Source: Schmidtea polychroa (Eukaryota). From it: a stretch of DNA of 64,000 nt. The notes beneath the pieces are model-generated. The model did no database searches. It had not been told where the DNA came from and saw only the letters and a program-made list of their open reading frames with translations. A program made the position numbers and the translations under genes. Position 1 is the first letter of the stretch, and every line of letters starts with the position of its first letter. Positions 17,956-51,254 of this stretch are shown here, piece after piece. The stretch covers positions 248,001 to 312,000 of the forward strand of contig CM097885.1 in NCBI GenBank assembly GCA_044892525.1, given 5' to 3'.

Positions 17956-18014
17956 ACTACTGATATACATTTAGTAATTTTACACACATTTATATACATC
18001 GCTTTTTGTCGGTT

Positions 18015-18722: not shown

Positions 18723-18883
18723 GTCTACAATATTTACAATTAATAGTGCGCTACAGTGCGGCTTATACTTATACATTTATAGGTAATTTTATATAATCAG
18801 GGTAAATATTTTTATCGTACTAATAATTTTTTGTTGGGATACAGGTCCCGATTTTTTATATATTTTATCTTTTCCATTTATCT

Positions 18884-19921: not shown

Positions 19922-20139
19922 CTTTGTCTAAATAACGATATCATTAACTCAACGTTGTACGCTTATATCTGGTTTATTATTTATTTATTTTTACAATTCG
20001 TTATAGGAGTTGTTTTAGAAGTTTTACGCTTAAGTTTACTTTTAGTAGATTTGGGGGATTTTTCTACACTACTATATAATGTTTTACGGGGTATATATGC
20101 CGATATTTACAATTAGTATATACAAAATTATTCGTCTCT

Positions 20140-21528: not shown

Positions 21529-21617
21529 TTCTATAATTATATATATACATATATTCGTTACTGGTACAGTTTCGTATTTTTATTTACAGTTATTTACATT
21601 GCTATTTTAGGTTATAT

Positions 21618-21977
21618 TTATTGGCTGGAAGAGTCGGCCTCTTGTCCGCCCTCTTCCCTACTGGTTAACCATTCTGACCAGTCTTCTATCTCCTCTCGCT
21701 CCATCTCTTCCGCGATTCTTATTAACTCCTCTTCTTGCACCTGGCTGTATCGTGATATTCGGTCTATCTCTCGCTGCATTTGTTCTATTTTTATTCGTTG
21801 GTCTTCGATTATTCTTACATAACTGAAGCCTTTATTTAAACTTTCGACTAAGCTTCTTTGTACAGCGAGTCCTTGTTCCTGTAAATTCGAAATCACTTGA
21901 GTTAACATTGCACATTGTTGTTTCCACATTTCCTCGGTTGTCGTACTGTGATTTACTTCCTCGCCTATTCGCTCCAT
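21618..21977 (-). CDS. Accessory ORF: small acidic coiled-coil protein
   Basis: Open frame between pol and TRAF; first ATG at 21977. Confidence 0.6.
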   Translation of the reverse strand: MERIGEEVNHSTTTEEMWKQQCAMLTQVISNLQEQGLAVQRSLVESLNKGFSYVRIIEDQRIKIEQMQREIDRISRYSQVQEEELIRIAEEMEREEIEDWSEWLTSREEGGQEADSSSQ

Positions 21978-22145
21978 TCTTAATTTATATATACTTTTCA
22001 ACCCTTATCCAATTTTATTTTTATATTATTTATCCCCATCGTTATATAATATTGATACCGCGGTTATATAAAAATATATCATACTGTTATATAAATAAAT
22101 ATTATCTACTTACTTTTTACAATCTATATACAGTCATAATCCTTT

Positions 22146-29945: not shown

Positions 29946-32900
29946 CTCGTTTGCGCATTTCCCTGGTGGTATTGTGGGTTTTCTTGGCAGTCGCGCAAAC
30001 GTCTTGGTACATACATTACCTCTCCCACCATTCTACCAAAATGTCCATCCGGTAACGGGAGTGATGGCATTGTGTTATCTGGGTGTGTTATTGCGATGGC
30101 TAATTTTGTTTTTAGTATCTCTTTATTCAATGAACAGTCATTTTGTATAAGATCGTAGTATACTTTTTGCATTGTCGTTTGTCCTCGATGAAATAAAAAG
30201 TCCATTTTGTTGTTGGCATAAAGGTACAACTTCACGTCCTCCGTTGATACTTTTCCTACTGCTCGGTCTATTACTTGCCTTGACATGTAGATACCTGCGT
30301 AGTTCGTCCGATATACTATGCTGTCACATTCGGTGGTCTCTTTTTCTCTGATGAATCTCATACCGATATCTGGATCATCTGTAATTAATGCCGTTGGTGT
30401 TTTTTGTGTTGTGAGTCTCTTTTCTTTGGGGGATGGTGGAACTGGTTTCCCATTTCGCATCCTTACGTTTCCATTCTCTTCATCGTCATCCTCGTTTTCG
30501 TAAATTTCTCCTTTTACTTCATTGAATAGAGCACTTTTTAACAATTGGAGTCGGCATTTTTGGGTGTTAGCTTCATATATTATAGTCGAAATTCCCGTTC
30601 TACACACGTTTTCCGTAGCTCTGCATGCTGGGTTGGTTTTCATTTGATAGTTGTTTGCGTCGAATTGTGCTTCGTATTCCTTCAACTCCACTGTGTAGGA
30701 CTCAATTACTACTACTCCCGAGATCACTTCTCCTCTGATCGTATATGTGCCTCCGTTACATGATCCATCAGTTGATTTTACTCGTCCGGCTACATAGATA
30801 CTTTCCGTCTTGATCATTCCGCTTTGTCCGTGTATTGTTACTCCATCCCTGATTCTCATCGCTCCGGTTCTAAAAAGCTCTTTACAGTCTTCCCGTTGTA
30901 TAGGTACTATTTCTTTATCTAATCCAGGTAATATGAGAGTTGAATACGAATATTGTCCACAGTAATATGCCAACACTTTCTTCGATACTACGCATTCTCT
31001 AGCTTGCGTCCTAATGAAATCTGATTCTTGGTATACGTGATAGGAGACTTTCTTTTTTACTATATCTAATTTATTCGGAGATGCCTGTCTACATTCCTCT
31101 ATATCTCTCAGGGAGTATCTTTCTCCTATTATTGAATTGTCACAGTCGTAAATTGTAAATCCAGCTGCTCCACTGGTGCAGAGCATCCATATCATCATGG
31201 TCATCATTAGTGAATTAATCGACGCTTTTCTGCTGGCTGGGTCTTTCAATGGCAATTCCCATTCCAGTTCGTTTAGCAATTTCTTCAACCGAATTTGCAT
31301 CGATCTCTCTTGCTCGTTTTTTCGTGGCGCTTGTATGAGTCTTTTCCACCCACCGGCACGGATAATATGTGGTTCGATTGTATTTTCAATGATTGTAACG
31401 GTCATTTCTACATGATTTGCGAATTGTTTGTTAGGTATTTTCCTTGCTGCTAATCCCATCAAATTGTACATTAGATACGTTAATACTACTAAATGATGTT
31501 CGTCGTCGTTTGCGTTTAAAGTTAATTGTTCAATTACCCTTCTTGTCTCTTCCCAATCGGTTTTAGTGGTTTTTGTCTTCTCTTTGATTAATTTCGGAAT
31601 TATTCCGGATATTGTATTCCATAGCTGTCTGGCATCTACGCTTGCTACTTTTCGTTGCCATAACCGTCGCAATTGTGGGTTCGTTATTATTAGCATATCT
31701 TTTACTAGCTCTCGTATCCATTTTTCGCCTCTTTCGATTGTTGGCTGGGCCTCTTTCAGATCCCACACTATTTTATCCAGTTTCTTCAATCTGACTTGTC
31801 CTTGTTCTTGTTTCAGTTGTTCTCTGGTTTTAAATTCTGGTTTTTCTCCTTGCTTCTTGGGTCTTCCTTTTGCCCGTTTCTCCATCATTGTTCCAGCTTC
31901 TCTTGTCGTTTCATAATTCGGGTTTCTCTCGTTATCTGTTCTTGGCAATGAGCTATCGTTGTTTCTCAGCCACTCATTCCATTCGTCTATTATTTTGTCC
32001 GTTTGACCTTCTGGTGTTGCTTTCGTCGGTCCTTTTGGTCGTTGGAATTGTTCGTCGGTTTCGGTTTCTGTTGTATTATCGATAATTTCCTCTATGTTCA
32101 GCTTATTTGGTTGTTGATAGCTAGTTGACGGTTGGCTTGTTGTCCATATTTCGGCTCCTGTCGGCCATCTTACCAGAATTGGTGATCTTTCTCCAGCTCC
32201 TTCATCGCTGTCTTCTAATATGATTTCCTCGATTTCCTCGGTTTCATTCGATTTACTCGCCACTTTGTTAGGGCTTGGTGTACTCAAGCTACCTTTCGTA
32301 GTTTTGCTGGATTTGCTCTTCCTTTTAATCGGTTTTCCCAATGTTTCTGCCATTGTCAATACATTGATCTCCCCCAATCTCATGGGTGTTATTCCGACAT
32401 CTGCATTATCATCTAACGATTTTCCGAATAGTTGTAGGTGAAATGGAGTTTCGTATGCTAACTTCTTTTTTAACTCTCTGATCTTTGTTGTTGGATGTAC
32501 TTCTATATCCTCAATGCTTTTGTCGGGATACTTGACTCGGATACGATACCTTTCCTGGGTATCTTGTGCCCATTCTTGGTTTCTCCATTTCCTAATAATT
32601 TGTTCTAGCTGTTCTGGGTACCATTCGTTATATTGTCGGTATTCCTCAATCGCTTTCGCCATTTCTCTTAGATTGTGGATATTCTCTGATGTCTTTAGGA
32701 TGATGTTAGCCAATGCTACTACTTGTCGTTTTTGATTTTTTGTTCCCGTTGCTAAGATGTCACCTAATTGTTTATATCTTTCCTTCTCTTCTCGTTCTCG
32801 AGCTTCCATCGCTTCTTCGCTGTCCATATCGGCATATTCGCGTTCCTTCTTTCTCATCGCATGAATATGTCTGGTTTCCGTTTCACTTTCGGACGTGACG

Positions 32901-35900
32901 TCCGTTTCGCTTTCCTCGTCCGATACCGGTTCTTTCTCTTCCTCTTCGTATTTTGGAGGTTCGTCTTCCTCTTCTTCTGATTTACTTTCGGTCTCGCCAA
33001 TGTCTGTTTCTACGAAAATTCCTTTCCTGACTTCCCACTCTTTATTTTCCGCATTCCACATCCTTTCCCAGGGAGTTCGTCTGCAAGATCTAGTACTTAG
33101 TTTCTTTATTTTTCCTTGTAGTTCCTTTTCCTTTAACCACTGTTGATGAATTTCAATTATCTCTACTGATTTTTGGTATAGCGTTTTCATCCTGTCCCGT
33201 ATCTCTTTCTGGTAGGTTACATCTCTTGTTCGGAATTCGTCCATGGGCAATATTCTAATTATTTGATGATTATCCCACATTCCCATTTCGCTTAACGATG
33301 TGTCGTCTTCAGCCCGTAATATTATTTTATCGTACATCATGACTACATCATCTATCATCCCGTCGCTACTCTCGCTTCGTACTTTTTCCGTTATCTCTTG
33401 GTTTATCTTGGTTACTAAGTCATCCACCGTACTCTGATTACTCATCTTTATTCGTCGTTTCTCCTCGTTTGGTAACCATATGGTTATTTCTAATTTCTGC
33501 GGTTGCGTTTCTTTTAATCTTCCGTATTTGTGGATCAAATTTATGGTTCTCCAATCGCTCATCCTGAGCAATTCTGTATCTCGTAATCGGCTCATTAGTT
33601 CATGCATATCTGGAGTTCGTCTTGCTATGAGTAAATCCCAGTTATCTTCGACTTGTTCTTGAATTTGTTTGATTAGTTTATCTAGATTCCGCCTTAAAGT
33701 GCATTGTTTTATTTGTTCCAATTTCAGCTTGATATTGAAATCGTATTCAGCCTTGGCGTCTTTAGCCCATTCATGAACATTAGTTGGTTGCTTCTCTTTA
33801 TGCAACTTCAATATTTGAGTTTCTCCTGGCCAGATCAATGCATCTATTAGGTGCATGTCTGGCTTAATTTGTTCTCCTTGGTATTGATATAAATACTCTT
33901 TCTTTCTCGAGCTGCCCAAATGTTCTCTTATCCAATCGAAAAGATCGTCTGTAACTGTATTTTTTATCCATATTCTCTCGAGTCCTTTACTCGTTCCGAT
34001 TTTATTACGTATTTTTTCCATATACTTCTTTATTATCGCTTTCTCCTCGCTTGGTATTAAATCTTTTTCGTTTCTTTCCAGTTTCATTATCTTTTGTATG
34101 AAGCGTCTGTATGGTATGATGTCAATGAAATCCTGGTTTCTTACCACCACTGGAAGTATTTCTTTTACTTGTTTTATCGCCTCTTCTTTTTCCTTTCTCA
34201 GTTTCATCTCGATATTCTCATCTTCACTTTCGCTTGCCACATCGCTTTCACTTTTCTCCTCATCTTCTCCGATCTTTTTCTTTAGTTGTTCGATATTTTC
34301 ATTTAACTGCAATATTTCTCCACCCAGGCTACTCACATTATCCTCATCGTCATCTGTTGACAATACCTTCTTTGTCGTCCTCATCATATTAATTCGTAAA
34401 TTCCTCATCCTTGGTACTTTCTTTAGCTTCTGGTTCTCGAATATCGTTAGCTCCTCTGAGTCTAATTCTTGTATCATATTATGATTTAGATGATTAATCT
34501 GCTTCTCATTTTCGTTATTTTCCGCTTCTACTCCGGTTTTGATTTTCTCGTGTTCCTTTTCGATTTTATCTTTTATCTTTTTCCAGAATATTTTCTGAAT
34601 TCTCTGATTCCCTTTTAATGGTGTTGTTGGGTTTTCCTTTTTCGCTTCTGTAATCGTTTCTTTCGGTGTCTCTGGTTCGATCAATGGGACTACTCTTGGA
34701 TTTTTCCCGTAATTGTAACAATATTGCTCTTTTATCTCCTTTACCATCCTCATCATATTTATTCGTAATGGTTGTTCTTGTCGCTGCTGAATTCGCTCTC
34801 TTTTTATTCTCTCTTCCTCAGCTTGTAGTCTCTGCCATTCTTGTGCATGTTGTTGTACTTCATAATTGTTAAGATTCTCGGTGCTCCTCATCAGGCGTAT
34901 ATTCTGAGTTTGTTGTGGTACTGGTTCTTGTCTTGGCCTCATCATTTGTTGCATCATTTGTTTCATTTGAGAAATTTCTTGCATCACATTCATTTGTTTT
35001 CCCTCACTGGGGTTACTTTGTCGTTGCGGATTTGGTGCATAATTATTGTTTCGTTGTGGTGGTCGTTGTTGTTGGCCCCTTTCTCGGCAATCTCTTGAGA
35101 TGTGACCTGGCTGACCGCAGTTAAAGCATCCTCTCAACTGGCATATATTTTCCGTGTGTCCTCGTCGTCCGCATCTATTACAATTTGCGTTTCGGTAACA
35201 ATCTCTGTACCAATGTCCTGGTTTACCGCATGTTCGGCATTGTTTGTTATCGTTCGTATTTCGTCGATTATTAAAATTATTTCCATTGTTCGAGTTGTTG
35301 CGTTCGCTGTTATTCCCGTTTGATCGTCCTTGCGGTGGTTTGAAAATTTGATGCGCACCTGGTATAAACTGATTCATCTTCGGTTCATGATTATTGTTAT
35401 CTCCATTTTCTGTTTTCGCCGTAGCTGCTGCGATTCTTCCCTCCTCTTGCATGACATTCATTTGTGCCGGGAGGTGTAGTTCGCATCTTGTGGCCCAATC
35501 TATGGCCTCCTCTAGTGTTTTACACATCTGACATCCCACCGAGGCTCTTACCTCTTCCCGGCGTAGTCCTTCTATGAAATAACCAATTAGGTTCTCTTCC
35601 GGCAAGTTTCCGTTCATGGCCTTCGTTGCCAATCTTCGCAATTCGCTTGCGTATAACGTTATTGATTCATTGGCTCTTTGTTTTCTACTCGCTAATTCTC
35701 CTAGGGCTTGATTTATTGGTTTGCTGGCCCCGAATGTTTTTCTCAAAAATGTTTTGATGTTTTCCCAATTGTCTAATTTCGTATTTCTTTCTTTTGCTTC
35801 TAGATACACTTCGAGTGCGCTATCGCACAAAAACAGAGGCATTCGTTTACTAATTGCTTCCGCTGTCCATCCGCACACATCGATATAGACTTCAAAATTT

Positions 35901-35992
35901 GTTATGAACGTTGCCAACTTGTTCGCATTCCCGTTAAACGGTTCGCCTCTAAATTTTTCTTTATACTCGTCGGTTTTTACCACATTCATCAT
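29888..35992 (-). CDS. gag: Polyprotein part 1: Gag (capsid, 3 CCHC knuckles) - ubiquitin-like domains - Bcl-2-like domain - envelope glycoprotein ectodomain
   Basis: Retrotransposon capsid motifs (PFNG..F..F..GW..L..SA..W..F..RKQ..ESI..Y..FIEGL) and three CX2CX4HX4C at 35087-35239. The frame stays open without an ATG up to ~36415. Env-like part starts after the hydrophobic MMTMMIWMLCTSGAAG at 31207. Confidence 0.9.
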   Translation of the reverse strand: MMNVVKTDEYKEKFRGEPFNGNANKLATFITNFEVYIDVCGWTAEAISKRMPLFLCDSALEVYLEAKERNTKLDNWENIKTFLRKTFGASKPINQALGELASRKQRANESITLYASELRRLATKAMNGNLPEENLIGYFIEGLRREEVRASVGCQMCKTLEEAIDWATRCELHLPAQMNVMQEEGRIAAATAKTENGDNNNHEPKMNQFIPGAHQIFKPPQGRSNGNNSERNNSNNGNNFNNRRNTNDNKQCRTCGKPGHWYRDCYRNANCNRCGRRGHTENICQLRGCFNCGQPGHISRDCRERGQQQRPPQRNNNYAPNPQRQSNPSEGKQMNVMQEISQMKQMMQQMMRPRQEPVPQQTQNIRLMRSTENLNNYEVQQHAQEWQRLQAEEERIKRERIQQRQEQPLRINMMRMVKEIKEQYCYNYGKNPRVVPLIEPETPKETITEAKKENPTTPLKGNQRIQKIFWKKIKDKIEKEHEKIKTGVEAENNENEKQINHLNHNMIQELDSEELTIFENQKLKKVPRMRNLRINMMRTTKKVLSTDDDEDNVSSLGGEILQLNENIEQLKKKIGEDEEKSESDVASESEDENIEMKLRKEKEEAIKQVKEILPVVVRNQDFIDIIPYRRFIQKIMKLERNEKDLIPSEEKAIIKKYMEKIRNKIGTSKGLERIWIKNTVTDDLFDWIREHLGSSRKKEYLYQYQGEQIKPDMHLIDALIWPGETQILKLHKEKQPTNVHEWAKDAKAEYDFNIKLKLEQIKQCTLRRNLDKLIKQIQEQVEDNWDLLIARRTPDMHELMSRLRDTELLRMSDWRTINLIHKYGRLKETQPQKLEITIWLPNEEKRRIKMSNQSTVDDLVTKINQEITEKVRSESSDGMIDDVVMMYDKIILRAEDDTSLSEMGMWDNHQIIRILPMDEFRTRDVTYQKEIRDRMKTLYQKSVEIIEIHQQWLKEKELQGKIKKLSTRSCRRTPWERMWNAENKEWEVRKGIFVETDIGETESKSEEEEDEPPKYEEEEKEPVSDEESETDVTSESETETRHIHAMRKKEREYADMDSEEAMEAREREEKERYKQLGDILATGTKNQKRQVVALANIILKTSENIHNLREMAKAIEEYRQYNEWYPEQLEQIIRKWRNQEWAQDTQERYRIRVKYPDKSIEDIEVHPTTKIRELKKKLAYETPFHLQLFGKSLDDNADVGITPMRLGEINVLTMAETLGKPIKRKSKSSKTTKGSLSTPSPNKVASKSNETEEIEEIILEDSDEGAGERSPILVRWPTGAEIWTTSQPSTSYQQPNKLNIEEIIDNTTETETDEQFQRPKGPTKATPEGQTDKIIDEWNEWLRNNDSSLPRTDNERNPNYETTREAGTMMEKRAKGRPKKQGEKPEFKTREQLKQEQGQVRLKKLDKIVWDLKEAQPTIERGEKWIRELVKDMLIITNPQLRRLWQRKVASVDARQLWNTISGIIPKLIKEKTKTTKTDWEETRRVIEQLTLNANDDEHHLVVLTYLMYNLMGLAARKIPNKQFANHVEMTVTIIENTIEPHIIRAGGWKRLIQAPRKNEQERSMQIRLKKLLNELEWELPLKDPASRKASINSLMMTMMIWMLCTSGAAGFTIYDCDNSIIGERYSLRDIEECRQASPNKLDIVKKKVSYHVYQESDFIRTQARECVVSKKVLAYYCGQYSYSTLILPGLDKEIVPIQREDCKELFRTGAMRIRDGVTIHGQSGMIKTESIYVAGRVKSTDGSCNGGTYTIRGEVISGVVVIESYTVELKEYEAQFDANNYQMKTNPACRATENVCRTGISTIIYEANTQKCRLQLLKSALFNEVKGEIYENEDDDEENGNVRMRNGKPVPPSPKEKRLTTQKTPTALITDDPDIGMRFIREKETTECDSIVYRTNYAGIYMSRQVIDRAVGKVSTEDVKLYLYANNKMDFLFHRGQTTMQKVYYDLIQNDCSLNKEILKTKLAIAITHPDNTMPSLPLPDGHFGRMVGEVMYVPRRLRDCQENPQYHQGNAQTSWKLVTKGKTDSFNPSLEL

Positions 35993-37270
35993 GACTGGTT
36001 CTTGTAACTCTATTGTTTCTTTTAAATTTTCCAGCGGTGTCGCTAAATTATGGACGGATAATTCTTCTGTTGACCCGGTTAGGTTGTTTGATATATCGGA
36101 TAGGCTTTCTCTGCTTCTAGATCGACTAGGGGTGTATCCGAGGTTTTCTTGGTCAAATGTTGGTACTTGATTTGTTCTTTTTGCTCCTTGTGATCTTCCT
36201 CTTTGCTGTTTTATGGATCGTCCTCTTCTGAGCTGTTCTAGTTCGTCTCCTGAAATTAATACGTCTCTCGACTTACTTGAGGATCTGAGATTCAGTTTCT
36301 CCGTGGTTCCTTTATACGCCTCTCTATCGTCTCTTAAGGGTTTCTCGGCAATTATCGGCTGCTGACTTGAGCGAATTCGGTTTTGTCGGTGTTCCGAGTC
36401 CTTGGCAATTGGTTGTTAGCGTTATGAGACGTCTTCCGTTCTTGGAATCTTCGGGTTGTGTTACTCCTACTGAGCGGGTTCTGGATTGGTTATTTCTAGT
36501 TGGTCGTTGATTTCTTCGAATTCCTTTGTGCAGGTTCTGGATTGGCTTGATTGACTGGATTGGTTTGGTATCTAAAATGAAAAAATGATCTCGTGTTGCA
36601 TCTGCTCACACGACTTCATCATTCTTTCTTCAACATTCAAACACAGACACCGTTTAGGGCCTCTGTTATACTTCTCCTTATTTCCCCATACAATTTCTCG
36701 TGGATTATAGTCACCCATCAACCCATAGTTTTCGTCGATTTTAAATTATCTATTTAGGGTAGTAATAATTATCTATATGGTCGTATGAATCATCTATAAT
36801 TATCATTTATAATATCGATAGGTCGTTGTCAGTTACTGCTTATCACCCCCCATATTCTCTTAATCCTTTTACGCGGTTCCGCTATTTTACTTAATCTTTC
36901 GTCTCTGTTCCCCTTCACTCGGTTCTACTCTGAACCAAAAAAAAAAAAAAAATCGGATTCGTTTATCCGGTTTAAACCAAAATTCTGTAGACTTTTGTCT
37001 ACTTACTTGGGATCCCCTTTAATTAATTAATTACCTTCCTTTTTACTCGTCATTTATTCCCACTTATTCTCTACTTTTACTATCTCTTCAATTCATTTTC
37101 CTTTTCTGATTCTCCTTTTCTACTAAAAGGGTTTTACTTTCATCTTCTACGAGCTCGTTTAATCCTTTCTAAATTCGACTTCTCGTATCCCAATTCAATT
37201 TGTTTCTAGCTAGCTTAATATTCTATCTCATTATCAACTTAAATATTATCCAATCATTTTCTAGGCCTTT

Positions 37271-37625
37271 ACGACTGGCTGGCACTTTTCAACAGCTCAA
37301 TCTTCTTCCTTCTGACCGGTTGGACTATTCGACAACTCGATCTTACGACTGGCTGGCACTATTCAACAGCTCAATCTTCTTCCTTCTGACCGGTTGGACT
37401 ATTCGACAACTCGATCTTACGACTGGCTGGCACTATTCAACAGCTCAATCTTCTTCCTCTCCAAACTGGCTGGACTTTTCACAGCTCAGTTTTTAATTTT
37501 TTTTCCTGACCGGCTGGACTTCTCGACAGCTCGGCCTTAATATCTCCCGACTGGCTGGACTTTTCACAGCTCAGTTTCAATTTCCCTGGCCGGCGGGACT
37601 ATTCAACAGCTCGGCCTTAATATCT
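37271..37625. repeat. Tandem repeat in the 5' leader (74-bp unit built from ~35-39 bp subunits)
   Basis: ACGACTGGCTGGCAC.. recurs at 37271, 37345 and 37419; degenerate (C/T)GGCTGGAC..TTC.ACAGCTC subunits continue to ~37625. Confidence 0.9.
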
Positions 37626-38198
37626 TCGACTCTGCATGCTGCTATCTTTTCTTTACCTTTATTCTAGACTGTCATCTCTCCTTTTATTTTTACTTTTTAT
37701 TTGTCGATCTAATCTGTGCCGCTTGAGAATGTTTCCCCTTTCCCCCCTTGCTCAAAACGCAAAACGATCGCATTGATCCATTTCTACATTGGTATGGTGA
37801 TCAGTCATACCGCAGAAACTTTTCAATATTCGCGATGGTACCTCGCCTTACATCTCTTACTCGGGGTGATCGGTTATCCCTTCCCAACCGGTTTTCGTGT
37901 ATCGTACCTCCCGAAGGTGGCTCGGTTTATTCCCCCTTTACTCCTATGTTGGGACTAGCTCCACTTTATTTTATTTGTTCAAATTAAATTTATAGATGCT
38001 CTCTCTCTATGGTGAAAATTATCATAAAGTTACTGAATTCACAATAAAATGAACACGCAAAACATTCTATTCATTAGTTGGCTTAAATCACATGCAATAT
38101 ACAAATTTACTAGAAAATTGTTGATACATCAATTAAATATAAAGGATTTAGTCAAATCGTCAATCAGATCAATTCTTTCACCGAGTGCTGCTCGCGTG

Positions 38199-38678
38199 TT
38201 AACTGAAGTAAATCGTGTGCTTCTCCTTTATTGCACATACACATAAAGAACAATGCGTTAAACTGACGGCGCATTCGTCGCAATGGCTAAGGTGTCCACA
38301 AGGTAGCATTAGAATTCTGGCAGGTCGCGTCTTACAAATGTTACAAGTTCTCAAGGCCGCTGCTTTTTCTATTATCGAGGTTCGTATTCTCTGAGATAGA
38401 GTTTTTACTTGTTCGCGTATTTTCACATATTCGAGGTTCAGAGCGGGGTCGTCGAGTCGTTGCTGCATCCATTGGTAATGGACAGACAAGTCGGTGTCGG
38501 TATTTGTTGACCCCAATCTGTCGGTTAGAAAGTTTTGTTTGGATATCAGCGGTGCGTTGTGGCGTTGTTGCTCTAGGGTTTCTATTTGTTGCAGTTTTTC
38601 TCTTAACGTCTTTATGGAATCGTTTTCTATGTCGACGAACCGGCTTAGTCGTTGTAGATGTTTCCTAGCTTCTGACAT
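38199..38678 (-). CDS. Coiled-coil + C-terminal IAP-type RING finger protein, upstream of gag
   Basis: CNIC..ARILMLPCGHLSHCDECAVSLTHCSLC..IKEKHTIYFS* matches the C-terminal RING layout and aromatic tail of IAP-like ligases; no BIR domain; acceptor TTTTTTAG 2 nt before the ATG. Confidence 0.85.
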   Translation of the reverse strand: MSEARKHLQRLSRFVDIENDSIKTLREKLQQIETLEQQRHNAPLISKQNFLTDRLGSTNTDTDLSVHYQWMQQRLDDPALNLEYVKIREQVKTLSQRIRTSIIEKAAALRTCNICKTRPARILMLPCGHLSHCDECAVSLTHCSLCVCAIKEKHTIYFS

Positions 38679-39087
38679 ATCTAAAAAAGTATGTTGTCAT
38701 TACTCGGTCTCACTTATAAAAATAAAAATAATATTATCGTGTTATAATCAATGTTCGTTTGGCTTTGTTCGCTATTGTTTCTAGTTTATGTATTTTATTC
38801 AATCTCTAATAATTCTTTTTTAATTTAATTCATTTAAAATTAAACAAAATTAGTCAATTCCCATTTTCTCTTCTCTTCATATTCAATCACATTCATTCAA
38901 ACTTATTTAGGTTCGTTTTTGTTCATAGCATGTTCTATTTTACGCAAAGACAGTTCGCATCATCATCTTAATACACTATAATATCAATTCATTTCAGTCC
39001 CGATTCCCTTTTTTATTATAATTAATTAAATTGTTAGTCTAACACATCGTAATACAGTAATAGGCAATCAAACAATTCGAAATCACA

Positions 39088-39105
39088 ATCCCGGCTGAGC
39101 CCCCA
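39088..39105 (-). promoter_or_regulatory. Primer binding site complementary to tRNA-Pro 3' end
   Basis: Minus strand TGGGGGCTCAGCCGGGAT, 16/18 identical to the classical tRNA-Pro PBS TGGGGGCTCGTCCGGGAT; 7 nt from the 5' LTR. Confidence 0.85.
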
Positions 39106-39112
39106 AAAATCA

Positions 39113-42100
39113 TGTTGGCGTATGTGGGGAAAGAGAAAATATGCCCACCTGATCATCATACATCCCAAGTACTCTCTTCCGCTCCGATACTTCCCATACA
39201 TACTCCAAAATGATCAAATACATATTCCCACGTATGAGCCCGTGGTGGTGTTCCACGTTGGTGCTGCTCACACGGGTTGGAAAAGGTTAGCAGGTGAGCC
39301 CCTGCCTTAGGACTACTCCTAACCCTTTCTCGGTTCGGGTTCCATGGTGCCATAGAAGGTCTTACCCGTTTCTTCGCTCCTAATTCAGTCCAACCCTGGT
39401 CCAAAGGGACGACATTTGCGCTCGTACTATGTCTCCAGGAGCACCTTTTACTCAAATCAACCACAGCAAATCACACATACCATGAAAAAAAAAATCAAAG
39501 ACTTCAAACAGTTGTATTAAAGAGAAACATAAAAATACATTCACCATTAATTAAATAAGAACAAAACATCAAAGGTCATGTACAGGATAACGTCAACTTC
39601 TCCGAGTTCCTTCATACCGCACAAAGATTGAGACAAATGAGAAAAAGGAATTCATTACGAAAACACTTCTCCTTCTGCGATCATTTCGTCAATGTCGACG
39701 GGCAACCGGCGATCTTCGAGGAATTTGATGACGTCGGCCGGAACTACCCGAAATACTTCTTTCGTAGGGATAGAATGGGTGATTGTAATTTCCTTGATCG
39801 TCGATTTGGCTGCAGATAACGATGCCTCGAGCGCAGAAGAGTTTTCTCAGCAGTTGTAGGAGTAGTCATCTAAAGAATGAGAAGTCCTTTATTTACATCA
39901 TTAAAATCCTTTCTACTATTTGTTTTCTTTTTATCGTGAGCTTTATCCTGCCACATGTGCATACAATCAGGATTGTCCCCCACATCCATACCTTTGACAT
40001 CACTTAACTCATCCAAACCGTAAACCTTCAAATCAACTCATCATATCGTTCGTAAGGAAGAAAAAAAAAATGAGAACCATCACACGTTATTTCTCTACCC
40101 ATATTGATATTGTACCTAGGTTCCTGGGTCGACAGTTATCATCTAATCGCAATCAGTTACTCCTTACCACTAATATATTTTTTCACTTTTATTTATTATG
40201 ACCCATTGAAGGTGTGTCTACTCCCTTGCTATTATGGCTTATTGAGTTATGCCTGCTTTAATTTAGAAGAAGTAGTTCCATGCTGTTGATGCATTTTTGC
40301 GCTGTGTTAGGTTAAAACGAATGTGTTAAAAATTATTGTAAGTATTAATTTCCCCCATAAATTATAATTTAATTATTTAAATTTTCGCATTTTATGTTGT
40401 CATAACGACGCATATTAGTATGTAGTTGTGTACTGGTTTCAGACTCTACCTGATGTGCGCTAATGTGTATTATTTAGTTTTACTCAATTATCGCTGTCCT
40501 CTCTTAGCAAATTCTAGACATTGTGTCGGTTAGTGTACTTGATCTCGTCGCTTATTTATGCATGCCTACGGACACATGCTACTATGACGCAATGATGATG
40601 TCGACTCACTCACGTCCCATGTATTAGTGGATTTATCTGTGTGTGGGTTTGGGTCTGCTTATCTCAGTTATAACATTATTAGCAGATGGGCTAGACGAAC
40701 GGAAGATAAGGAGTCAGACTTATAGAAATAACGATTGTTATGATTTCAAGATGGCCTAAATCTGTTATCGGGTAGCAAATGGATTTAATTTCTATCTCTC
40801 TCGTGAATGTTGACTATTCTCAAAAACCTAATCGTTTCATCGACTTGGCGCAAATCGTTCCACAATCGAACCGCTGGAATATTTTATCTACGCTACTTGC
40901 CTCTCTGCAATAGTCGTTTCTCGATCAGATGGAAAATTTATTGATAATTTGTTCGGAATGGTCGATGAAAATTTCCTTTAGGACTGTAGTAAGTGCTTAT
41001 GATTAATTAGAACTTTGCTGTTTACTTTCCTGTCAGGACGAATCCTTATCGATGACAGTAGCTAATCGAAGGTTGATAACTAAGTCTCCTACTCGTCCAA
41101 TAACATATCACCGCGACGGGTTGAATCGCTAACGTTCTCTTAATTTATCAATTCTTGGAAATATAGAATGCTCCAGATTTTTTATCATTCATCAAGAAAA
41201 CGAAAATGGACGTTAGAATTATCAGTGAGGTTCGAGAATTTCATTACCCTCAAGGATAGTCGGTGTTCATATTCTGACGAAAAGAAGTCACCTAGCTCTA
41301 AATTGAATATGGCCGAACTCAAACTCGGATTAAATATCGAGAAATGTCGTCAATCTCCTAGAATTTTCAGTCAGCACGTTGTCGGCATCGAAACAGTATC
41401 GCTCAGAAGTTTCCTCAATCGAAAGTTTGCGACGGCTAATTCTCCAGATAGCACTCGATGAAAGGATCATTGACTCGATTCGTTTTCTCTCACAGGGTTT
41501 CCTCACCCCTCACAACCCACCCAAGGACAGTACGCATTTCTGCCCACTGCCCTTGGACCGTCGTGAAGGACAACTCGACCCGACTTATCTCAAATCCTTC
41601 TCCAATAAATGTGCAATTAATAAATTCATATATGATCAAACAAATATGGGAATAATGAAATTAAAAGAAAAATCAAATAAATAAATGTTTACCTGGCGGC
41701 CACGCCAGCCGGATTCCGGGTATGATGACTCTTGCTAACGTAGGTTTTTACATTCATTTAGCAATCATTGTAATACTAATATCCATGTAGATACTTGGCT
41801 GGTTCGGTCAGTGCAATTTCTGAGTATTCATATTCATAAGCTCTCTCTGAAAATGCATACGTAATTTAGCCGCATCATACCCGAGCTCCAGAGGACGTCG
41901 TCGCCAGCATCATAGAGAGAAAGCAACATCTTTTGGTTTTAAATATAAATTTTATTGAAAAATAAAACGTCTTTTGATATTAAATTCATAATAAACATTA
42001 AAAATATCATACTAAAATTCAAAACATAATTTACCAAAATTCTCCGAAGGTGTTGAGATTGAAATCAAAGTCTTGTAAATTTTTCCTTAACGTTTTATTC

Positions 42101-42807
42101 TTCTCAACTGGATTCGATCTCGACTATTATCTGCCTCTAAGTAATATCTGTTATGTCCAAGTATGAATATTGTTCGTAAGTCTGTGCTCGTGAGTGGTTC
42201 CTAGCTTAGTCCTGTAGAGTTTCGGGTTAGAATGATAATTTTAAATAAATTTTACCTGTAGAGTTTCGGGTTAGAATGATACTCTACAGAGTTTTGTTGC
42301 TCTTTATATATATTTTTCCGTCCAATCAGGACACACCTTGCTTGTAATTTTGTTATTTATTATTATTTTATGTTTTTTCTTATCGTAGTATATTATATTT
42401 TAATGACCCTACCTATTTCTATTATTGTTTTATTTATTTTCTTATTTTTTATTATTTTTCTCCTATTTTTTTGTGGTTTTATTGCTATTTTATTGTAACT
42501 TCATTTTTTGTTTTAATTAACCTTATGGATGATTTTATTTTTATTTTGTTTTCCTTTAGTTTTCGTTTGTTTTTCTTAAATTTTGTGCCATTTTATTTCT
42601 CTTTTACTGTTGTGCTCATTGGGTGCCTTCCCTTTTGTCTTATTTCCCCTTTACAGGTTTTGTTATTTTATTTAGTTATTCTTGTTTCTTTATGGATGTT
42701 TAATTTGTTTCTTCCTATGTTTCTCGTAATTTTTATATGTTTTTATTTTATTTACTCTATCTCTTCCTGGGTTCGTTTTTCCAACACCTTCAGAGCTTGG
42801 CCCAACA
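39113..42807 (-). repeat. 5' LTR (3695 bp; 550 bp shorter than the 3' LTR)
   Basis: Direct repeat of 12796-17040 lacking 13518-14068; adjacent to the PBS. Confidence 0.97.
42211..42330 (-). promoter_or_regulatory. Putative LTR core promoter and first mini-intron (same in the 3' LTR at ~16443-16562)
   Basis: CCAAT box (42322-42326), minus-strand TATATAAAG (~42303-42313), Inr-like TCATTC ~30 nt downstream, then a 44-nt GT..AG segment (42255-42212). Confidence 0.5.
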
Positions 42808-44941: not shown

Positions 44942-45161
44942 GGCATTCGGTTAACTGGCTATTGGATGTTTTTTAACCACCATAAGCCAATTAACCCGTG
45001 GTAATAGTGTTTTCAATGCATTCGGTTAACTGGCTATTGGATGTTTATTAACCACCATAAGCCAATTAACCCCGTGGTAATAGTGTTTTCAATGCATTCG
45101 GTTAACTGGCTATTGGATGTTTTTTAACTACCATAATCCAATTAACCCAGTGGTAATAGTC
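44942..45161. repeat. ~77-bp tandem repeat, about 3 copies, overlapping the 3' end of ORF 45128-45562
   Basis: GCATTCGGTTAACTGGCTATTGGATG..CCATAAGCCAATTAACCC.GTGGTAATAGT repeated. Confidence 0.9.
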
Positions 45162-45562
45162 AATTGATATTCTATTGATCCTTTGATTGTTTGAATTTCT
45201 CTTAATAATAATTCAATCTTTTTTAACAAATAATCATGCTTCTTATCAATAATTTTCATATTCTTTTTATTTTCAGCAATAGAGTTATTGAAAACCTCAA
45301 TATGATCAATCAATTTAATTTTTATATTTTGTATATATTCAAATGTTAGTTCATAACTGTTTTCTAAATTCTCCAATCTTTGAGATATTCTTTTTCCTGG
45401 ATGCTTTGACCATTTTGGTTTATCGAGAATATATAAAATATCCATCAACTTGGCTGTATTCGGACAAACACATATTGATTTATTAAAAGACTCCAATGTT
45501 ATTGTTGTATTGTGTGAGCACACACTCGTTATAATAATTAGCAATATGAATATAGTTTTCAT
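45128..45562 (-). CDS. Predicted secreted coiled-coil protein (Maverick accessory gene)
   Basis: Signal peptide MKTIFILLIIITSVCS, CVCP motif, heptads; divergent from the Bcl-2-like gene across a CCAAT/TATA-containing spacer. Confidence 0.65.
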   Translation of the reverse strand: MKTIFILLIIITSVCSHNTTITLESFNKSICVCPNTAKLMDILYILDKPKWSKHPGKRISQRLENLENSYELTFEYIQNIKIKLIDHIEVFNNSIAENKKNMKIIDKKHDYLLKKIELLLREIQTIKGSIEYQLTITTGLIGLW

Positions 45563-45667
45563 GGTGTATCAAATCAAAACCTTTCTTTTACATTTATAGT
45601 CTATCAACCAATCAAAATCATACAGTATTAGTATAAATAAAACATCATATTTTAAATTATTGTAAAA

Positions 45668-46182
45668 ATGTCTCATTTTATGGAAAATCTTTTAAGAGAA
45701 CTCGTCAACAAGAATATTATGGAAAGCCTAAGTTTCCTGGTCGATCGGACCGAAAAGATTATAGAAGGTAATCACATTGATTATGAAGATGTGATCAATT
45801 CTGATTGTCTCGAAACCAAAAAATTCTATTTTAATAGAATTTTTAACTGTCTATGCGACGATCAGATGAAGTGGACCCGAATACTAGTAGGGTTCGCTTA
45901 TATGAAAATAATAATCCAAAGAAGTCTATGGGACTCAGAGCACTATTATCAGTGGTCTCAAGAAGTAATACTTTTATAATCTATATTTTAATAATATTTA
46001 TTTTCTAGATAATCAAGTCAAAGTTTCAGCCATGGATTGAAGCCAATGGCGGATGATGCGTGCTGAATCAACTCGCCAGAAATGCCAAGGAAGTAGATCA
46101 ACAGAAAATCAAATTTAAAAACTATTTAAAATTTGCAACAGGTGTTGCTATTTTGTATGTTTTACGTCGGTTTTTTAAATAA
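45668..46182 (+). pseudogene. Bcl-2 family homologue, two exons, nonsense codon in BH2
   Basis: BH1-like FNRIFNCLCDDQMKWTRILVGFAY; 44-nt intron 45965-46008; exon 2 IIKSKFQPWIEANGG*(TGA 46054-46056, expected W) then ..LKFATGVAILYVLRRFFK* tail anchor. Confidence 0.8.
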
Positions 46183-46259
46183 AAATTAATAAAGTTATTT
46201 TGTTTGATTTTTAAATAAAATTTTAAATAAATTTACAAACACTAATTAACTAAGATTTA

Positions 46260-46633
46260 TTAATTAACACATTTGCAGTCTTCATCTCCACATTTCATTA
46301 TATTTTCAACGACATGATCAATACAATCATTCGTAATATTATCTTTAGATTCATCTTTAGGTTCCTCTATAGGTTCATCTATAGGTTCATAGATTTTTTC
46401 TAGAGTTTCTTCCTCATCAATTTCTTGAGTTTCTTCCTCATCATCAAATCCTGTATCTTGACTCTCAACTAACCAGCCGATATTTAAGGCATTTGTAATA
46501 GATAATATGTCCTCAATTTTCAAACCAGATATTTCTGCTAACTTTTCCAACAAAAAGTTGATTAAAAATTCTAAATAATAAATAATTCGGTAATTAATTA
46601 ATCATGTTAACCTTTTTCTGCAGTCATTTTCAT
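46260..46633 (-). CDS. Small acidic protein, two exons, function unknown
   Basis: MKMTAEK exon, 41-nt intron ~46571-46611, then an acidic EE/EP-rich exon ending CGDEDCKCVN. Confidence 0.5.
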
Positions 46634-46759
46634 CACTTTAAAACTATATTATAAGTTTGTTTATAGATTTTCTTTGTTAAATTTGCATGTCATTTGCATT
46701 TATGTTGCAATTAATAAAGAAAAAAACAAATCTGACTAATACATTTATTAAATATAACA

Positions 46760-47170
46760 TTAAAATATTTGTGAAAGTCTAGCAGACATAATTTTCCAAA
46801 TAGGAGAATATACATCATTATTATCAACTTTATATCCCTGGATTGCAATTGTTATATACCAATTTTCATTTTCTTTGAAACTGATTTCATCAAAAGCATC
46901 ATAAAATCTTGCATATCTATTAATGAACCACGCATGTTGATTACACGATAGATTCGAATCTATCCGTTTAAAAACATCATCAATAGTTTTGACATCAATC
47001 ATTGAAAGCGTGCCGGATAAGAATTCAAATTTAGTTGGAATTAGCTTGACTGGTGCAACCAATTTCATATTGATTTCTTCTTTCAAAAAATACATTTTGT
47101 AGTTGTGGAACATTTGAACTGGTTGTACCATTTCTTTCGGTTTTTCGGTGCTTGAAATTTTCTTGGTCAT
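46760..47170 (-). CDS. Hypothetical Maverick protein (136 aa)
   Basis: Clean ATG ORF with upstream TATA and CCAAT and downstream AATAAA. Confidence 0.6.
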   Translation of the reverse strand: MTKKISSTEKPKEMVQPVQMFHNYKMYFLKEEINMKLVAPVKLIPTKFEFLSGTLSMIDVKTIDDVFKRIDSNLSCNQHAWFINRYARFYDAFDEISFKENENWYITIAIQGYKVDNNDVYSPIWKIMSARLSQIF

Positions 47171-47467
47171 CGTGAATAATGAATAAATTTAAATGTTACA
47201 GGGTTTTTATACCTTTGACTCATTCCTATCAACCAATCAGATTATAGTATGTCTTTTTTTAAATTGCATTCAAAATGCATTGATGTTGCATTGTCACATG
47301 TTCTATTATTTTTATTAATGTTTTATTATTAATGTTTTATTATTATTAATGTTTTATTATTTCTATTATTATTATTATTATTAATGTTTTATTATTTCTA
47401 TTATTATTATTATTATTACTATTATTATTTCAAATATAAAAAAGATAAAACACAATAAAAAATACAT

Positions 47468-47880
47468 TTATTGGTAACCTAAATCTACAATCCGGGAGTA
47501 GTGAATCCTTCTCAGAGTTTTCACTAACTCCCATTCGACATATCGCCGATATCGATCGGCACAGCATGAGCATCCGATGATGCATTGGTACTCCGGCTCC
47601 ATTTGCTTCATTGTTCTGTTGATTTTCACATCCCATAAAAATTGGTGAAAGACTATTATTCTAATTTGCGTGGCATAAAAAATCAAATCTGGTATGATTT
47701 CCGGTTCCCGATCTTTGATTACTTCAGCAATTTGCGAATAATAATATTTTATCCTATTGATCATTATTTCTAAATATTTTTCTAAAATAATAAATATAAA
47801 AAAATGTGAAAATAAAAATTTTAAATTTACCATAATCATCAATATCCTTCATGAGATTCGCGGCGCTCGGAATTTTGTAC
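47468..47880 (-). CDS. Hypothetical Cys-motif protein, probably two exons
   Basis: Main exon with QCIIGCSCCADRY; AT-rich GT..AG segment at ~47782-47830. Start uncertain. Confidence 0.45.
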
Positions 47881-47954
47881 ATAGTGAAATAAATGAATCC
47901 TAAACAAAAAACCGTTTGTTTAAATCAATCAATAACCAATTAGAAATTAACCAA

Positions 47955-48392
47955 TTAGAAATCGACCAATGAAATTATCTCATTTCGAACCTTGTCAACA
48001 AATTCTCTATACTCCAAATTTCTCAACCCCAACATGACAACCTTTCCACTAGCAAACACGTTGACACATATAGGGTTATATTTTAATAGTCTTAGTGCCG
48101 AAAACAATTCCGGTTCAAACATACAATCACATTTTTTCGACATGTTATATAGATTGATACTATGTCCCATATCCATAGTAACGGTAATTGATTGGATTAT
48201 AATATTATTTATTCGATATTGTAATTTATTAATATCCAAAGGTTTCTTACATCCCATGATTCTGCATTTACCAGTCTTGAAAAATATTATCGGATATTTC
48301 CCGCTTCTATCGATAATTTGCTGGGGTTTCCCTGGTGGGAACCTCATATTCGATACATCAAAATTTCCTCGATAATTTATATTTGCTAACAT
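47955..48392 (-). CDS. TATA-box-binding protein (TBP)-like, minimal and intronless
   Basis: Both TBP repeats recognisable: IIFFKTGKCRIMGCK; IQSITVTMDMGHSINL; FEPELFSAL; VNVFASGKVVMLGLR (cf. LIFSSGKMVCTGAK, YEPELFPGL, LLIFVSGKVVLTGAK). Confidence 0.88.
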   Translation of the reverse strand: MLANINYRGNFDVSNMRFPPGKPQQIIDRSGKYPIIFFKTGKCRIMGCKKPLDINKLQYRINNIIIQSITVTMDMGHSINLYNMSKKCDCMFEPELFSALRLLKYNPICVNVFASGKVVMLGLRNLEYREFVDKVRNEIISLVDF

Positions 48393-48491
48393 TATTAAAT
48401 CATTTATGAAAATTAGTCTTTATATACAAATTGAGCACGAGTTCATTAAATCATCGAATATAAACAAATACACATATATAAAATTTTTGAA

Positions 48492-49118
48492 ATGGAATTA
48501 AGAAATGATGCAGTATACCAAATCGTTGGTCCGAGTGGTAATGGAAAAACATTATTTGTTTGTAAATTACTAAAATCAAATTTATTCAAATCAAAATTCA
48601 ACAGGATTTATTGGCATAGGGGTGCTGATGAAGAACATGGATTAACTCAATCAAGTTTTTGTAAATTAAAAAACATGAAAATTGTAAAGGGATTCGATAA
48701 AAACTGGTCCAGCCGATTAAAGAAAGGTGATGTCATTATTATCGATGATTTGTATCAAGAAGCTAATAAAGAAAAAGATTTTAATAATTTATTTACAAAG
48801 ATCAGCAGACATGTCGGTGTAACAGTTATTTTCATAACACAAAATCTATTTCATCAAGGTGGGGCACATCGAACACGTAATTTAAATGTACAATATTTAG
48901 TTATTTTCAAGAATCCTAGAGATGCAACAGTGATTGATTTTCTTGCACGTCAAGCATACCCTAACAATCGTAATTTTCTTATCAGTGCATTTCAAGATGC
49001 AACAAAAATACCTCATGGATATATATTTCTTGATTTCACACAACAATGTTCCGATGATTTACGAGTAAAACCAGATATTTTCAACCCAAAAGGTGCCATG
49101 GTTTATAAACAAAGTTGA
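48492..49118 (+). CDS. A32-like (FtsK-HerA) genome-packaging ATPase
   Basis: Walker A GPSGNGKT, Walker B IIIDD, SRH, TQNLF, FKNPRD. Confidence 0.93.
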   Translation: MELRNDAVYQIVGPSGNGKTLFVCKLLKSNLFKSKFNRIYWHRGADEEHGLTQSSFCKLKNMKIVKGFDKNWSSRLKKGDVIIIDDLYQEANKEKDFNNLFTKISRHVGVTVIFITQNLFHQGGAHRTRNLNVQYLVIFKNPRDATVIDFLARQAYPNNRNFLISAFQDATKIPHGYIFLDFTQQCSDDLRVKPDIFNPKGAMVYKQS

Positions 49119-49136
49119 AAACCTCTATGAATAATA

Positions 49137-49670
49137 ATGTTTCTAAAAGCAAGGGTGAAAAATATTAGGAAATTAAGAAAAAGTATTAGAAAGAGTATTA
49201 AAGTTCCAAAAGTTCCACCAACAACTAGTTATACACCGTCTAAAAAACTTGTAACTGAAAATTTCTCTGCAATGAATCTTATTTCGAAAAATCCTAAACC
49301 TAAACGTAAAACCCGTAAAACTCGTAAAACCGGTAAAAAAGTAGTTAAAAATCATCGCAGTTTTCCATTTTTTAATGCATTGTTAAAGGCCCCGAGTATG
49401 AAAAGAATGAATATATTGCAATCATTCCCAAATTTTGTTGTCGATGATTTACTCAATATTATACTTAAAGTAGTCAAAGGCAAAATTAAAATCAGTAAAT
49501 CAAAAAAGAATTTATTGAGCAAACATAGGAAACCTTTATTATCTTTAGTAAATAATAAAAATCGTAAGCAAATGAGGAAAATTATATATAAACAACAATG
49601 TGGATTTATTGGTGCCTTGATACCTCTGGCATTATCATTATTAGGTGGAGTTGTAGGAAATCAATCATAA
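49137..49670 (+). CDS. Basic core/DNA-condensing protein of Maverick
   Basis: Very K/R-rich; C-terminal QQCGFIGALIPLALSLLGG resembles the QxGGF + hydrophobic tail of Maverick core proteins. Confidence 0.6.
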   Translation: MFLKARVKNIRKLRKSIRKSIKVPKVPPTTSYTPSKKLVTENFSAMNLISKNPKPKRKTRKTRKTGKKVVKNHRSFPFFNALLKAPSMKRMNILQSFPNFVVDDLLNIILKVVKGKIKISKSKKNLLSKHRKPLLSLVNNKNRKQMRKIIYKQQCGFIGALIPLALSLLGGVVGNQS

Positions 49671-49731
49671 ACAATTGGTGCTAATCCTTCATTGCCTGAC
49701 ATTAAATTTAATTTTAAATCTTCTTGTTGTA

Positions 49732-50846
<1,115 letters not shown>

Positions 50847-50850
<4 letters not shown>

Positions 50851-51254
50851 ATTTTTATATTATTTTACCTAGCAATAGCTGTCCACTTATTCATCCAGAT
50901 AATAAAGCCAGCAAATTCAGGGTCAATCTTCAAAATCCGATATATTTGGATAATAGCTGGGAAGTTGCTCTGTTGGATTTTACATTTGTATACCAAGCCT
51001 TTCCATTTTATAGTAAGGCTAAAATTGGATACAAAAAGAATGAGTGGCAGGATAGATTATTGTCTATGATCATTGATAATGCAGATGATGAAGTTCGGTT
51101 GTCTAATTCAACTGATCCAGCTGTGAAAATGTATATTAACCATCCATATATAGTAGTTGAATGTAAACATTATCCTTTTACTGTAAAATTTGATAGTTTG
51201 GAAATGGCAAAACGATTGGAATTAAAAACCCAAAGTCATAAAAGTAGTGAATAG
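50847..51254 (+). CDS. N-terminal part of Maverick minor capsid (penton-like) protein, truncated
   Basis: MNFYIILPSNS..PDNKASKFRVNL..PIYL..WEVAL is the typical N-terminus; ATGA overlap with the integrase stop; followed by non-coding AT-rich DNA. Confidence 0.7.

Follow-up and report, generated by a model that had tools for sequence, protein, structure and literature searches.

In a 64,000-nucleotide stretch of the Schmidtea polychroa genome (GenBank assembly GCA_044892525.1, contig CM097885.1, positions 248,001 to 312,000 of the forward strand; hereafter the window), we found a Maverick/Polinton element whose family probably carries its own two-exon Bcl-2 gene, encoding a protein that would act like the Bcl-2 mimics of DNA viruses, while the copy in the window appears to have decayed. 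An initial annotation, made from the sequence alone, had proposed a hidden spliced Bcl-2 homologue inside a Maverick at this site, and the gene does lie in such an element, whose block contains an A32-like ATPase, a putative rve and chromodomain integrase, a protein-primed DNA polymerase B (PolB) and an end resembling a terminal inverted repeat (TIR). A giant retroelement of the Burro type, which contains a Bcl-2-like segment of its own, lies 2.9 kb away.

On direct reading, an ATG at position 45668 (all positions are those of the window unless a locus is named) opens a 99-codon first exon that ends in YYQWSQE at 45964. The following 44-nt intron starts with GTAATA and ends with TTTTCTAG, carrying TTAAT 17 nt before the acceptor and no further internal AG. 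After removal of this intron, the second exon continues in frame from 46009 with IIKSKFQPWIEANGG and then reaches a TGA at 46054-46056, beyond which a further 41 codons (CVLNQLARNAKEVDQQKIKFKNYLKFATGVAILYVLRRFFK) are free of stops up to a TAA at 46180-46182. The tail-anchor-like segment is encoded past the premature TGA and is consequently absent from the product of the window copy. The coordinates that the initial annotation had given for exon 1, the intron, exon 2 and the TGA all hold, as do its statements that the list of open reading frames (ORFs) displays exon 1 only, since the plain list contains just an unspliced 103-amino-acid frame at 45668-45979, and that removing the intron at 45965-46008 adds PWIEANGG followed by an in-frame stop. 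An intact spliced gene would give a protein of 156-160 residues.

The gene model is consistently retained across the family. In all 30 sampled copies, of which the window copy is one, the 297-nt exon 1 is open and is followed by a 44-nt intron with a TAG acceptor; every intron starts with GT, as GTAATA in 29 copies and as GTATTA in one, and no stop interrupts exon 2 in any of the 29 sister copies sampled. The intron occupies the identical codon boundary in all subfamilies, as judged from gene models sharing 66-79% protein identity, with lengths of 30, 42, 44, 45, 48, 51, 54, 60 and 63 nt in the diverged ones. Genome-wide searches, which covered a 781-Mb genome with four very large contigs, returned 1322 matches (666 + 656) to a junction pattern with an intron of 28-58 nt and 0 matches to its reversed control, and an intron-less copy, sought with a 0-2-nt-gap junction pattern as a proxy for splicing, was likewise matched 0 times. 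Among the genome-wide matches listed were intron lengths of 44, 46, 47, 50, 52 and 55 nt, none of them divisible by three, and because many lengths are of this kind, exon 2 comes into frame with exon 1 only once the intron is removed. Intron-less homologues, namely the host-type gene L072, the host-type protein P0003 and the gene of a second Maverick family, align without gaps across the junction, the residues encoded by the intron being gapped out, and the ten-residue spacing from the helix-6 tryptophan to the PW of Bcl-2 homology motif 2 (BH2) is identical in the window-type gene and these homologues. The comparative evidence for the intron is strong, and we infer that it is spliced.

The similarity to Bcl-2 proteins was then evaluated with profile searches. 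Against a planarian Bcl-2 hidden Markov model (HMM) built from nine host-type sequences only, the spliced product of the window copy (with X at the stop) scored 43.3 bits, compared with a maximum of 12.7 bits for 1000 shuffled sequences, so that the profile search of the spliced peptide bore out the homology first proposed; exon 1 and exon 2 alone scored 23.5 and 9.8 bits, respectively. A profile-profile comparison (hhalign) of the Maverick Bcl-2 family with the nine host-type sequences gave a probability of 97.5% (E = 7.4e-12, 102 columns). In several subfamilies the intron length is a multiple of three and the TAG of the acceptor is the sole in-frame stop, which allowed these copies to be read through with an X; two of them, with 45- and 51-nt introns and 68-78% identical to each other, scored 34.6 and 33.1 bits and thus cleared the Pfam PF00452 cut-off of 31.4 bits despite the residues inserted by intron read-through. 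A phmmer search of the PDB with one read-through sister copy gave 75 matches at E ≤ 1, and among the matches listed 60 of 60 belonged to the Bcl-2 family, with A1/Bfl-1 being the best (E = 0.0047), while the family profile gave 100 matches, with 59 of the 60 listed being Bcl-2 family members and Bcl-xL the best (E = 6.6e-4). In these PDB searches KWTRILVGF of the window copy aligned to NWGRIV of Bcl-xL and A1, NWGR being the form by which the first Bcl-2 homology motif (BH1) is recognised. The GGW of BH2 is present in the family as a whole and absent from the window copy, where the tryptophan codon is TGA. Structure prediction agreed with these assignments: an AlphaFold2 model of a sister copy (30-nt intron read through, tail omitted, 27-row alignment) reached a predicted local distance difference test score (pLDDT) of 73.8 and a predicted template modelling score of 0.65, and showed eight helices, in keeping with the globular Bcl-2 fold, in which about eight helices surround a central hairpin. 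The Foldseek matches listed for this second model were all Bcl-xL, Bcl-2 or schistosome sjA (probability 1.00, template modelling (TM) score 0.53-0.69, root-mean-square deviation ~3 Å). By its sequence, the Maverick gene is a real Bcl-2 homologue.

Several observations weigh against this picture. Exon 1 of the window copy alone stays below the PF00452 cut-off (E = 0.0052, 17.7 bits), and exon 2 alone has no Pfam match. The BH1 motif is degenerate, in that KWTRILVGF keeps the tryptophan and arginine and has threonine in place of glycine (KWTR), and the hydrophobic tail with its basic flanks is only about 11 residues long. The best Foldseek E-value is 0.0068 and all of them stay above 0.001; the better AlphaFold2 model is that of a sister copy retaining 10 intron-encoded residues, and the first model (read-through of locus L034, 18-row alignment) was poor, with a pLDDT of 57.2, a terminal helix at 146-174 with a pLDDT below 50, and no Foldseek match at E ≤ 0.001 (TM ~0.3). 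A search of protein collections with exon 1, over a range of 54-174 amino acids, found no spliced form and a single cluster of unspliced 103-108-amino-acid ORFs, and the family profile gave three matches among 1.84 billion representative proteins, none being a spliced form. Moreover, sequence and fold data do not tell pro-survival from pro-death action.

To assess selection, we compared seven intact gene models in 21 pairs by the ratio of nonsynonymous to synonymous substitution rates (dN/dS), with synonymous sites often saturated and dS undefined in one pair. The whole-gene dN/dS was 0.03-0.25 in the 18 between-subfamily pairs and that of exon 2 alone was 0.07-0.35, whereas the three pairs within one subfamily gave 0.74-1.36, which is the pattern expected of selection during element activity followed by neutral decay after each insertion. 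The 30 nearest copies comprise only 17 distinct sequences, a sign of recent amplification. Subfamilies resemble one another in a mosaic fashion: L002 and L013 share 99% over the 200 nt upstream, 95% in exon 1 and 86% in exon 2, and L002 and L033 share 87% upstream and only 74% in the exons, which suggests recombination between subfamilies. Across L002, L013, L033 and L034 the intron equals the exons in conservation (73-87%), though synonymous sites are saturated, and may perhaps be under constraint. A record in ENA (P0002, a 738-nt contig) encodes a 104-amino-acid unspliced ORF of the exon-1 type that is ~61-73% identical to the copies here; its existence in a public assembly indicates that relatives of the gene occur beyond the sampled copies. 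Pattern matches were also present in viral and metagenome contigs, none of which was confirmed by tblastn.

The codon at the BH2 tryptophan is TGG in the other 29 of 29 sampled copies and TGA in the window, and the exact 27-base BH2 context occurs genome-wide with TGG in 725 copies and with TGA in seven. These comparisons agree with the earlier proposals that TGA replaces the conserved tryptophan and that the copy is probably inactivated, the premature stop being one that nearly all sister copies lack. The seven TGA copies are spread over different sublineages, and each of the six others has a TGG copy as a nearer relative than the window copy (one shares 98% identity with L013 and two share 98-99% with L062, the nearest sampled relative of the window copy being 95.5% identical); among themselves, too, the TGA copies are more distant than from their TGG relatives, so the stop arose repeatedly as ordinary decay and was not propagated. 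Judged by this distribution, the window copy is an ordinary pseudogene of an otherwise intact family, and its product would end at residue 114 after PWIEANGG, without the BH2 tryptophan, the last core helix and the tail.

We next considered where the gene came from. Its best match outside its own family is P0003, a 166-amino-acid host-type database protein (E = 1.4e-7, ~25% identity), and by sequence it is related most closely to planarian cellular Bcl-2 genes of the L072/P0003 type. Gene structure separates the two groups: the first coding exon of the cellular genes ends exactly at GGW and is followed by GT (seven of seven sampled loci; GTGAGT in L072), whereas the Maverick gene reads through GGW without an intron there; its own intron lies 16 codons upstream, at a site that is uninterrupted in L072. 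This difference concerns the origin of the gene and leaves its place in the protein family untouched. The GGW exon boundary is described in the cited sections of PMC8998228 as conserved from sponges to mouse and as a hallmark of cellular genes. A second Maverick family (L032/L091 type) contributes further to this comparison. It differs from the window type considerably (53% identity in PolB, 54% in an ORF with a TATA-binding-protein (TBP) domain and 35% in a 136-amino-acid ORF), and its Bcl-2 gene is present in at least eight genomic copies in a PF00452 scan. As in the window, this gene is Maverick-borne and stands beside homologues of the same 136-amino-acid and TBP-domain ORFs; it differs in having no intron, in being 43% identical to host L072 compared with ~26% for the window type, and in lying head-to-head with the 136-amino-acid ORF, where the window gene lies tail-to-tail. 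The simplest reading would be that an ancestral Maverick acquired a processed host transcript, with an intron arising afterwards in the window-type lineage; alternatively, one cargo site may have received genes on separate occasions, or the other lineages may have lost the intron.

The initial annotation had further claimed that the gene is a second, independent Bcl-2 capture in the window. The existence of a second mobile-element Bcl-2 was confirmed, as the Burro segment scored 17.4 bits against the host-type HMM with a shuffle maximum of 7.8, and independence went beyond what the tree can separate. In this tree the Maverick genes form one clade (98/97) and the deep nodes are unresolved; forcing a joint Maverick and Burro clade costs 1.8 log-likelihood units and is not rejected by the approximately unbiased (AU) test (p = 0.36 and 0.356), so a single capture followed by transfer between the two elements is compatible with the tree. 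This scenario nevertheless seems doubtful to us, since each of the two matches the host-type profile far better than the other (hhalign probabilities of 97.5% for the Maverick family and 92.8% for the Burro alignment, versus 31% over 45 columns for the direct comparison, in which the likeness is limited to BH2), since the Maverick gene finds its best outside match in host-type P0003, and since a free-standing intron-bearing gene differs in architecture from a polyprotein domain upstream of an envelope gene. On these alignments, independent capture by the Maverick and by Burro is plausible. The convergence of the DNA-virus-like element and the retroelement on apoptosis suppression, also proposed in the initial annotation, is an inference.

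The proposed function follows from the layout of an intact copy. Close to one terminal repeat, the gene would run from a TATA-like promoter through two exons, parted by a very short intron, to a signal resembling that for polyadenylation, and its product would adopt the helical Bcl-2 fold, bear motifs like BH1 and BH2, and end in a short hydrophobic tail with basic flanks. Such a protein may have its anchor in the outer membrane of mitochondria or in the endoplasmic reticulum and could there restrain Bak-type effectors or BH3 proteins of the host; cells would thereby survive while the element replicates or integrates in them, to the benefit of the element. Bak/Bcl-2-controlled release of cytochrome c in planarians, on which this scheme would act, is described in the cited sections of PMC8998228. 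We lean towards the intact protein being a tail-anchored pro-survival factor, a direction for which we rely on how the matches rank and on how the gene is laid out in the closest host relative. That relative, L072, has the layout of a single exon up to GGW (two coding exons) that PMC8998228, in the sections cited, describes for pro-survival members, which is weak evidence.

Two other activities of the same fold appear improbable, to a similar degree. One is a pro-death, Bak/Bax-like pore former that would kill and open the cell, for example to release particles, an activity to which the sequence and fold are as open as to the opposite one; against it, the best-ranking matches in both structure and sequence are to pro-survival members, the layout just mentioned is that of the closest host-type relative, and the multi-motif viral Bcl-2 homologues characterised so far are, to our knowledge, pro-survival. 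The other is a non-apoptotic role such as a block of innate-immune signalling or autophagy, as for some poxvirus proteins: vaccinia A52 and B14 share the fold yet inhibit NF-kB (PMC2494871, in the sections cited), and the degenerate BH1 would fit such a role, while the Maverick protein, unlike A52 and B14, is recognisable by sequence as a Bcl-2 family member and has a GGW-type BH2 and a tail-anchor-like end.

Whether the gene acts as a two-exon unit could also be questioned, as the intron might never be removed, with the 103-amino-acid exon-1 ORF as the product and exon 2 as a relic. The restriction of protein collections to ORFs of unspliced length would suit this view, which we regard as very improbable because exon 2 is under purifying selection, is open in all the sampled sister copies, joins exon 1 in frame only after intron removal at many different intron lengths, and supplies the BH2 motif that lifts the profile score from 23.5 to 43.3 bits. 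Decoding of the TGA (as tryptophan or selenocysteine, or by read-through), which would leave the window copy functional and for which the 41 open codons past it might speak, has a negligible probability and was rejected on the copy statistics (TGA in only 7 of 732 exact-context copies, scattered over sublineages with TGG nearest relatives), the other ORFs of the element ending normally under the standard code.

Features of the window and of the second Maverick family are collected in the table.

Table. Coordinates of the Bcl-2 gene, its host element, the neighbouring retroelement and the intron-less homologue
Feature	Position	Strand	Remarks
Exon 1	45668..45964	+	Open frame, 297 nt, 99 codons, helices alpha1-alpha6
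BH1-like KWTRILVGF	45869-45895	+	Within exon 1
44-nt spliceosomal-type intron	45965..46008	+	GTAATA...TTAAT...TTTTCTAG
Exon 2	46009..46182	+	BH2-like PWIEANGG 46030-46053, TGA, 41 open codons, TAA 46180-46182
Premature in-frame TGA at the BH2 tryptophan position	46054..46056	+	Sister copies have TGG
Hydrophobic tail-anchor-like FATGVAILYVL with basic flanks	46132..46164	+	Downstream of the TGA; by inspection
TATAAATA, TATA-box-like, 29 nt upstream of the ATG	45632..45639	+	Consensus resemblance only, in AT-rich DNA
AATAAA, 6 nt after the TAA stop	46188..46193	+	Consensus resemblance only
TIR-like Maverick end	43341..44223		Matches a sister element twice, at both of its ends, in opposite orientations, ~18.5 kb apart
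Maverick gene block	45128..51254		Pfam; collinear with sister copies
A32-like packaging ATPase	48492-49118	+	PF04665, 27.3 bits against a cut-off of 22.8
rve and chromodomain integrase	49732-50850	+	rve 25.9 bits, E = 1.3e-5, below the 32.6 cut-off; rve_3 and chromo weak
Protein-primed PolB with N-terminal endonuclease VII domain	61308..63725	+	PF03175, E = 5.7e-32
Broken inverted duplicate of PolB	52001-54436	-	Inverted repeats I1-I4
Burro-type giant long terminal repeat (LTR) retroelement	12793..42787	-	Direct repeats 12793-17020 and 39110-42787
Burro Bcl-2-like segment	within 31202-31903	-	Just upstream of a hydrophobic segment and an in-frame fusion glycoprotein
Intron-less 144-amino-acid Bcl-2 gene of the second Maverick family	L091 (G000:C1:15401001-15411000) 4774-5208	-	Pfam 32.7 bits

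Within the Maverick block, the minus strand carries a 144-amino-acid coiled-coil ORF, a 136-amino-acid ORF, a 123-amino-acid ORF and the TBP-domain ORF (47955-48392), and the plus strand carries the Bcl-2 gene, the A32-like ATPase, a 177-amino-acid ORF, the integrase and a 152-amino-acid ORF. The region 45166-51242 is collinear with three sister copies at 95-97% identity, one of which has inverted ends, and collinearity ends at 51242. The second end of the window Maverick itself was not found, the element being rearranged by inverted duplication. The arms of this duplication (51755-57232 and 58354-63971) are 98-100% complementary over ~5.5 kb in total and include PolB, present as one intact 805-amino-acid ORF and one broken copy; they could be a palindromic rearrangement or an assembly artefact. 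A third PolB ORF (389-2209, minus strand, 606 amino acids, PF03175 E = 5.1e-28) lies to the left of Burro and derives from another Maverick fragment, with no long match to the three sister contexts compared. No double-jelly-roll capsid gene is present in the window. Downstream of the integrase in a sister copy, a 407-amino-acid ORF resembles, in language-model features, double-jelly-roll capsid clusters (Atlas score 0.98) in which PF21738 occurs in 15-65% of members, a lead that comes without an alignment. The TBP-domain ORF encodes 145 amino acids with a single TATA-binding-protein repeat (PF00352, E = 4e-14), and its counterpart in the second, distant Maverick family, at 54% identity, lies at 5914-6363 on the plus strand of L091 (E = 1.9e-14 there).

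The direct repeats of Burro span at least 4.2 kb. Its Pfam content comprises gag, a zinc knuckle, an in-frame Monjiviricetes_fusion glycoprotein, protease, reverse transcriptase, RNase H, integrase and ankyrin repeats, and a separate ORF contains RING and MATH/TRAF domains. The cited sections of PMC6431247 describe the same architecture for Burro of Schmidtea mediterranea, with a BCL2-like motif between the MATH/TRAF region and the envelope gene, a domain credited there to Grohme et al. 2018 and extended. In the window, Pfam detected no Bcl-2 domain in the accessory ORFs of Burro at E ≤ 1; the domain sits in the gag-env ORF, where the segment is 25% identical over 359 residues to the corresponding region of a commoner Burro family, which reaches Pfam scores of 27-29 bits. 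The fusion-glycoprotein match is split over two minus-strand ORFs (29888-35992 and 22146-29891, with a 4-nt overlap at 29888-29891), profile positions 3-208 ending one and 425-579 starting the next. Since the published Burro has a single ORF (PMC6431247, in the sections cited), a frameshift inside env is probable in the window copy, barring a programmed shift. RING fingers of the IAP type (zf-C3HC4_3) were detected both in Burro (38199-38678, minus strand, E = 1.7e-8) and near the far end of a sister Maverick (L038:4988-5332, minus strand, E = 1.5e-7), and represent further cargo of the ubiquitin and cell-death type common to both element classes.

Taken further, these data would permit a broader, and in our view tentative, hypothesis: that planarian Mavericks took up an intron-less, processed copy of a host pro-survival Bcl-2 gene, which later acquired a new, very short spliceosomal intron within the element, and that they have kept it because Mavericks, like Burro, can spread only in stem cells of the animal that are sensitive to damage and in which mitochondrial apoptosis must therefore be turned off. 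If this were true, control of cell death would be a general requirement for the success of mobile elements in this host, and Polintons would possess an accessory function parallel to that of adenovirus E1B-19K. An experimental route exists, since planarian Polintons are reported, in the cited sections of PMC8532177, to be targets of piRNAs and SMEDWI-2 and to be de-repressed during differentiation. Independently of this hypothesis, an active gene would support the view that Mavericks replicate as viruses in living cells instead of merely transposing, and a single animal would then harbour two unrelated classes of element equipped with one type of cell-death gene from the host. The gene also provides a clean example of an intron in a mobile-element gene that the closest cellular relative lacks. 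Bcl-2 homologues of viruses and the BCL2-like domain of Burro are already known, and no description of a Bcl-2 gene in a Maverick/Polinton was found in the literature searched, a limited collection; an intron specific to the element, the very large number of copies and the presence of Burro alongside add to the interest.

Among known systems, the BCL2-like domain of Burro is the closest in setting, occurring in the same genome and belonging to the same protein family as cargo of a mobile element. It is part of a polyprotein of several thousand residues, directly upstream of a fusion glycoprotein and without an intron, whereas the Maverick gene is free-standing and intron-bearing. In function, the nearest parallels would be the large DNA viruses, for which Bcl-2 mimics are a classic tool: A179L of African swine fever virus, BHRF1, M11 and KsBcl-2 of herpesviruses, M11L, F1L and DPV022 of poxviruses and GIV66 of an iridovirus are homologues, and adenovirus E1B-19K is a functional analogue. 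The Maverick gene differs from these homologues in residing in an integrating element with over 1300 genomic copies rather than in a free large virus, in carrying a spliceosomal-type intron, and in still being a sequence-detectable relative of the host's own Bcl-2 genes.

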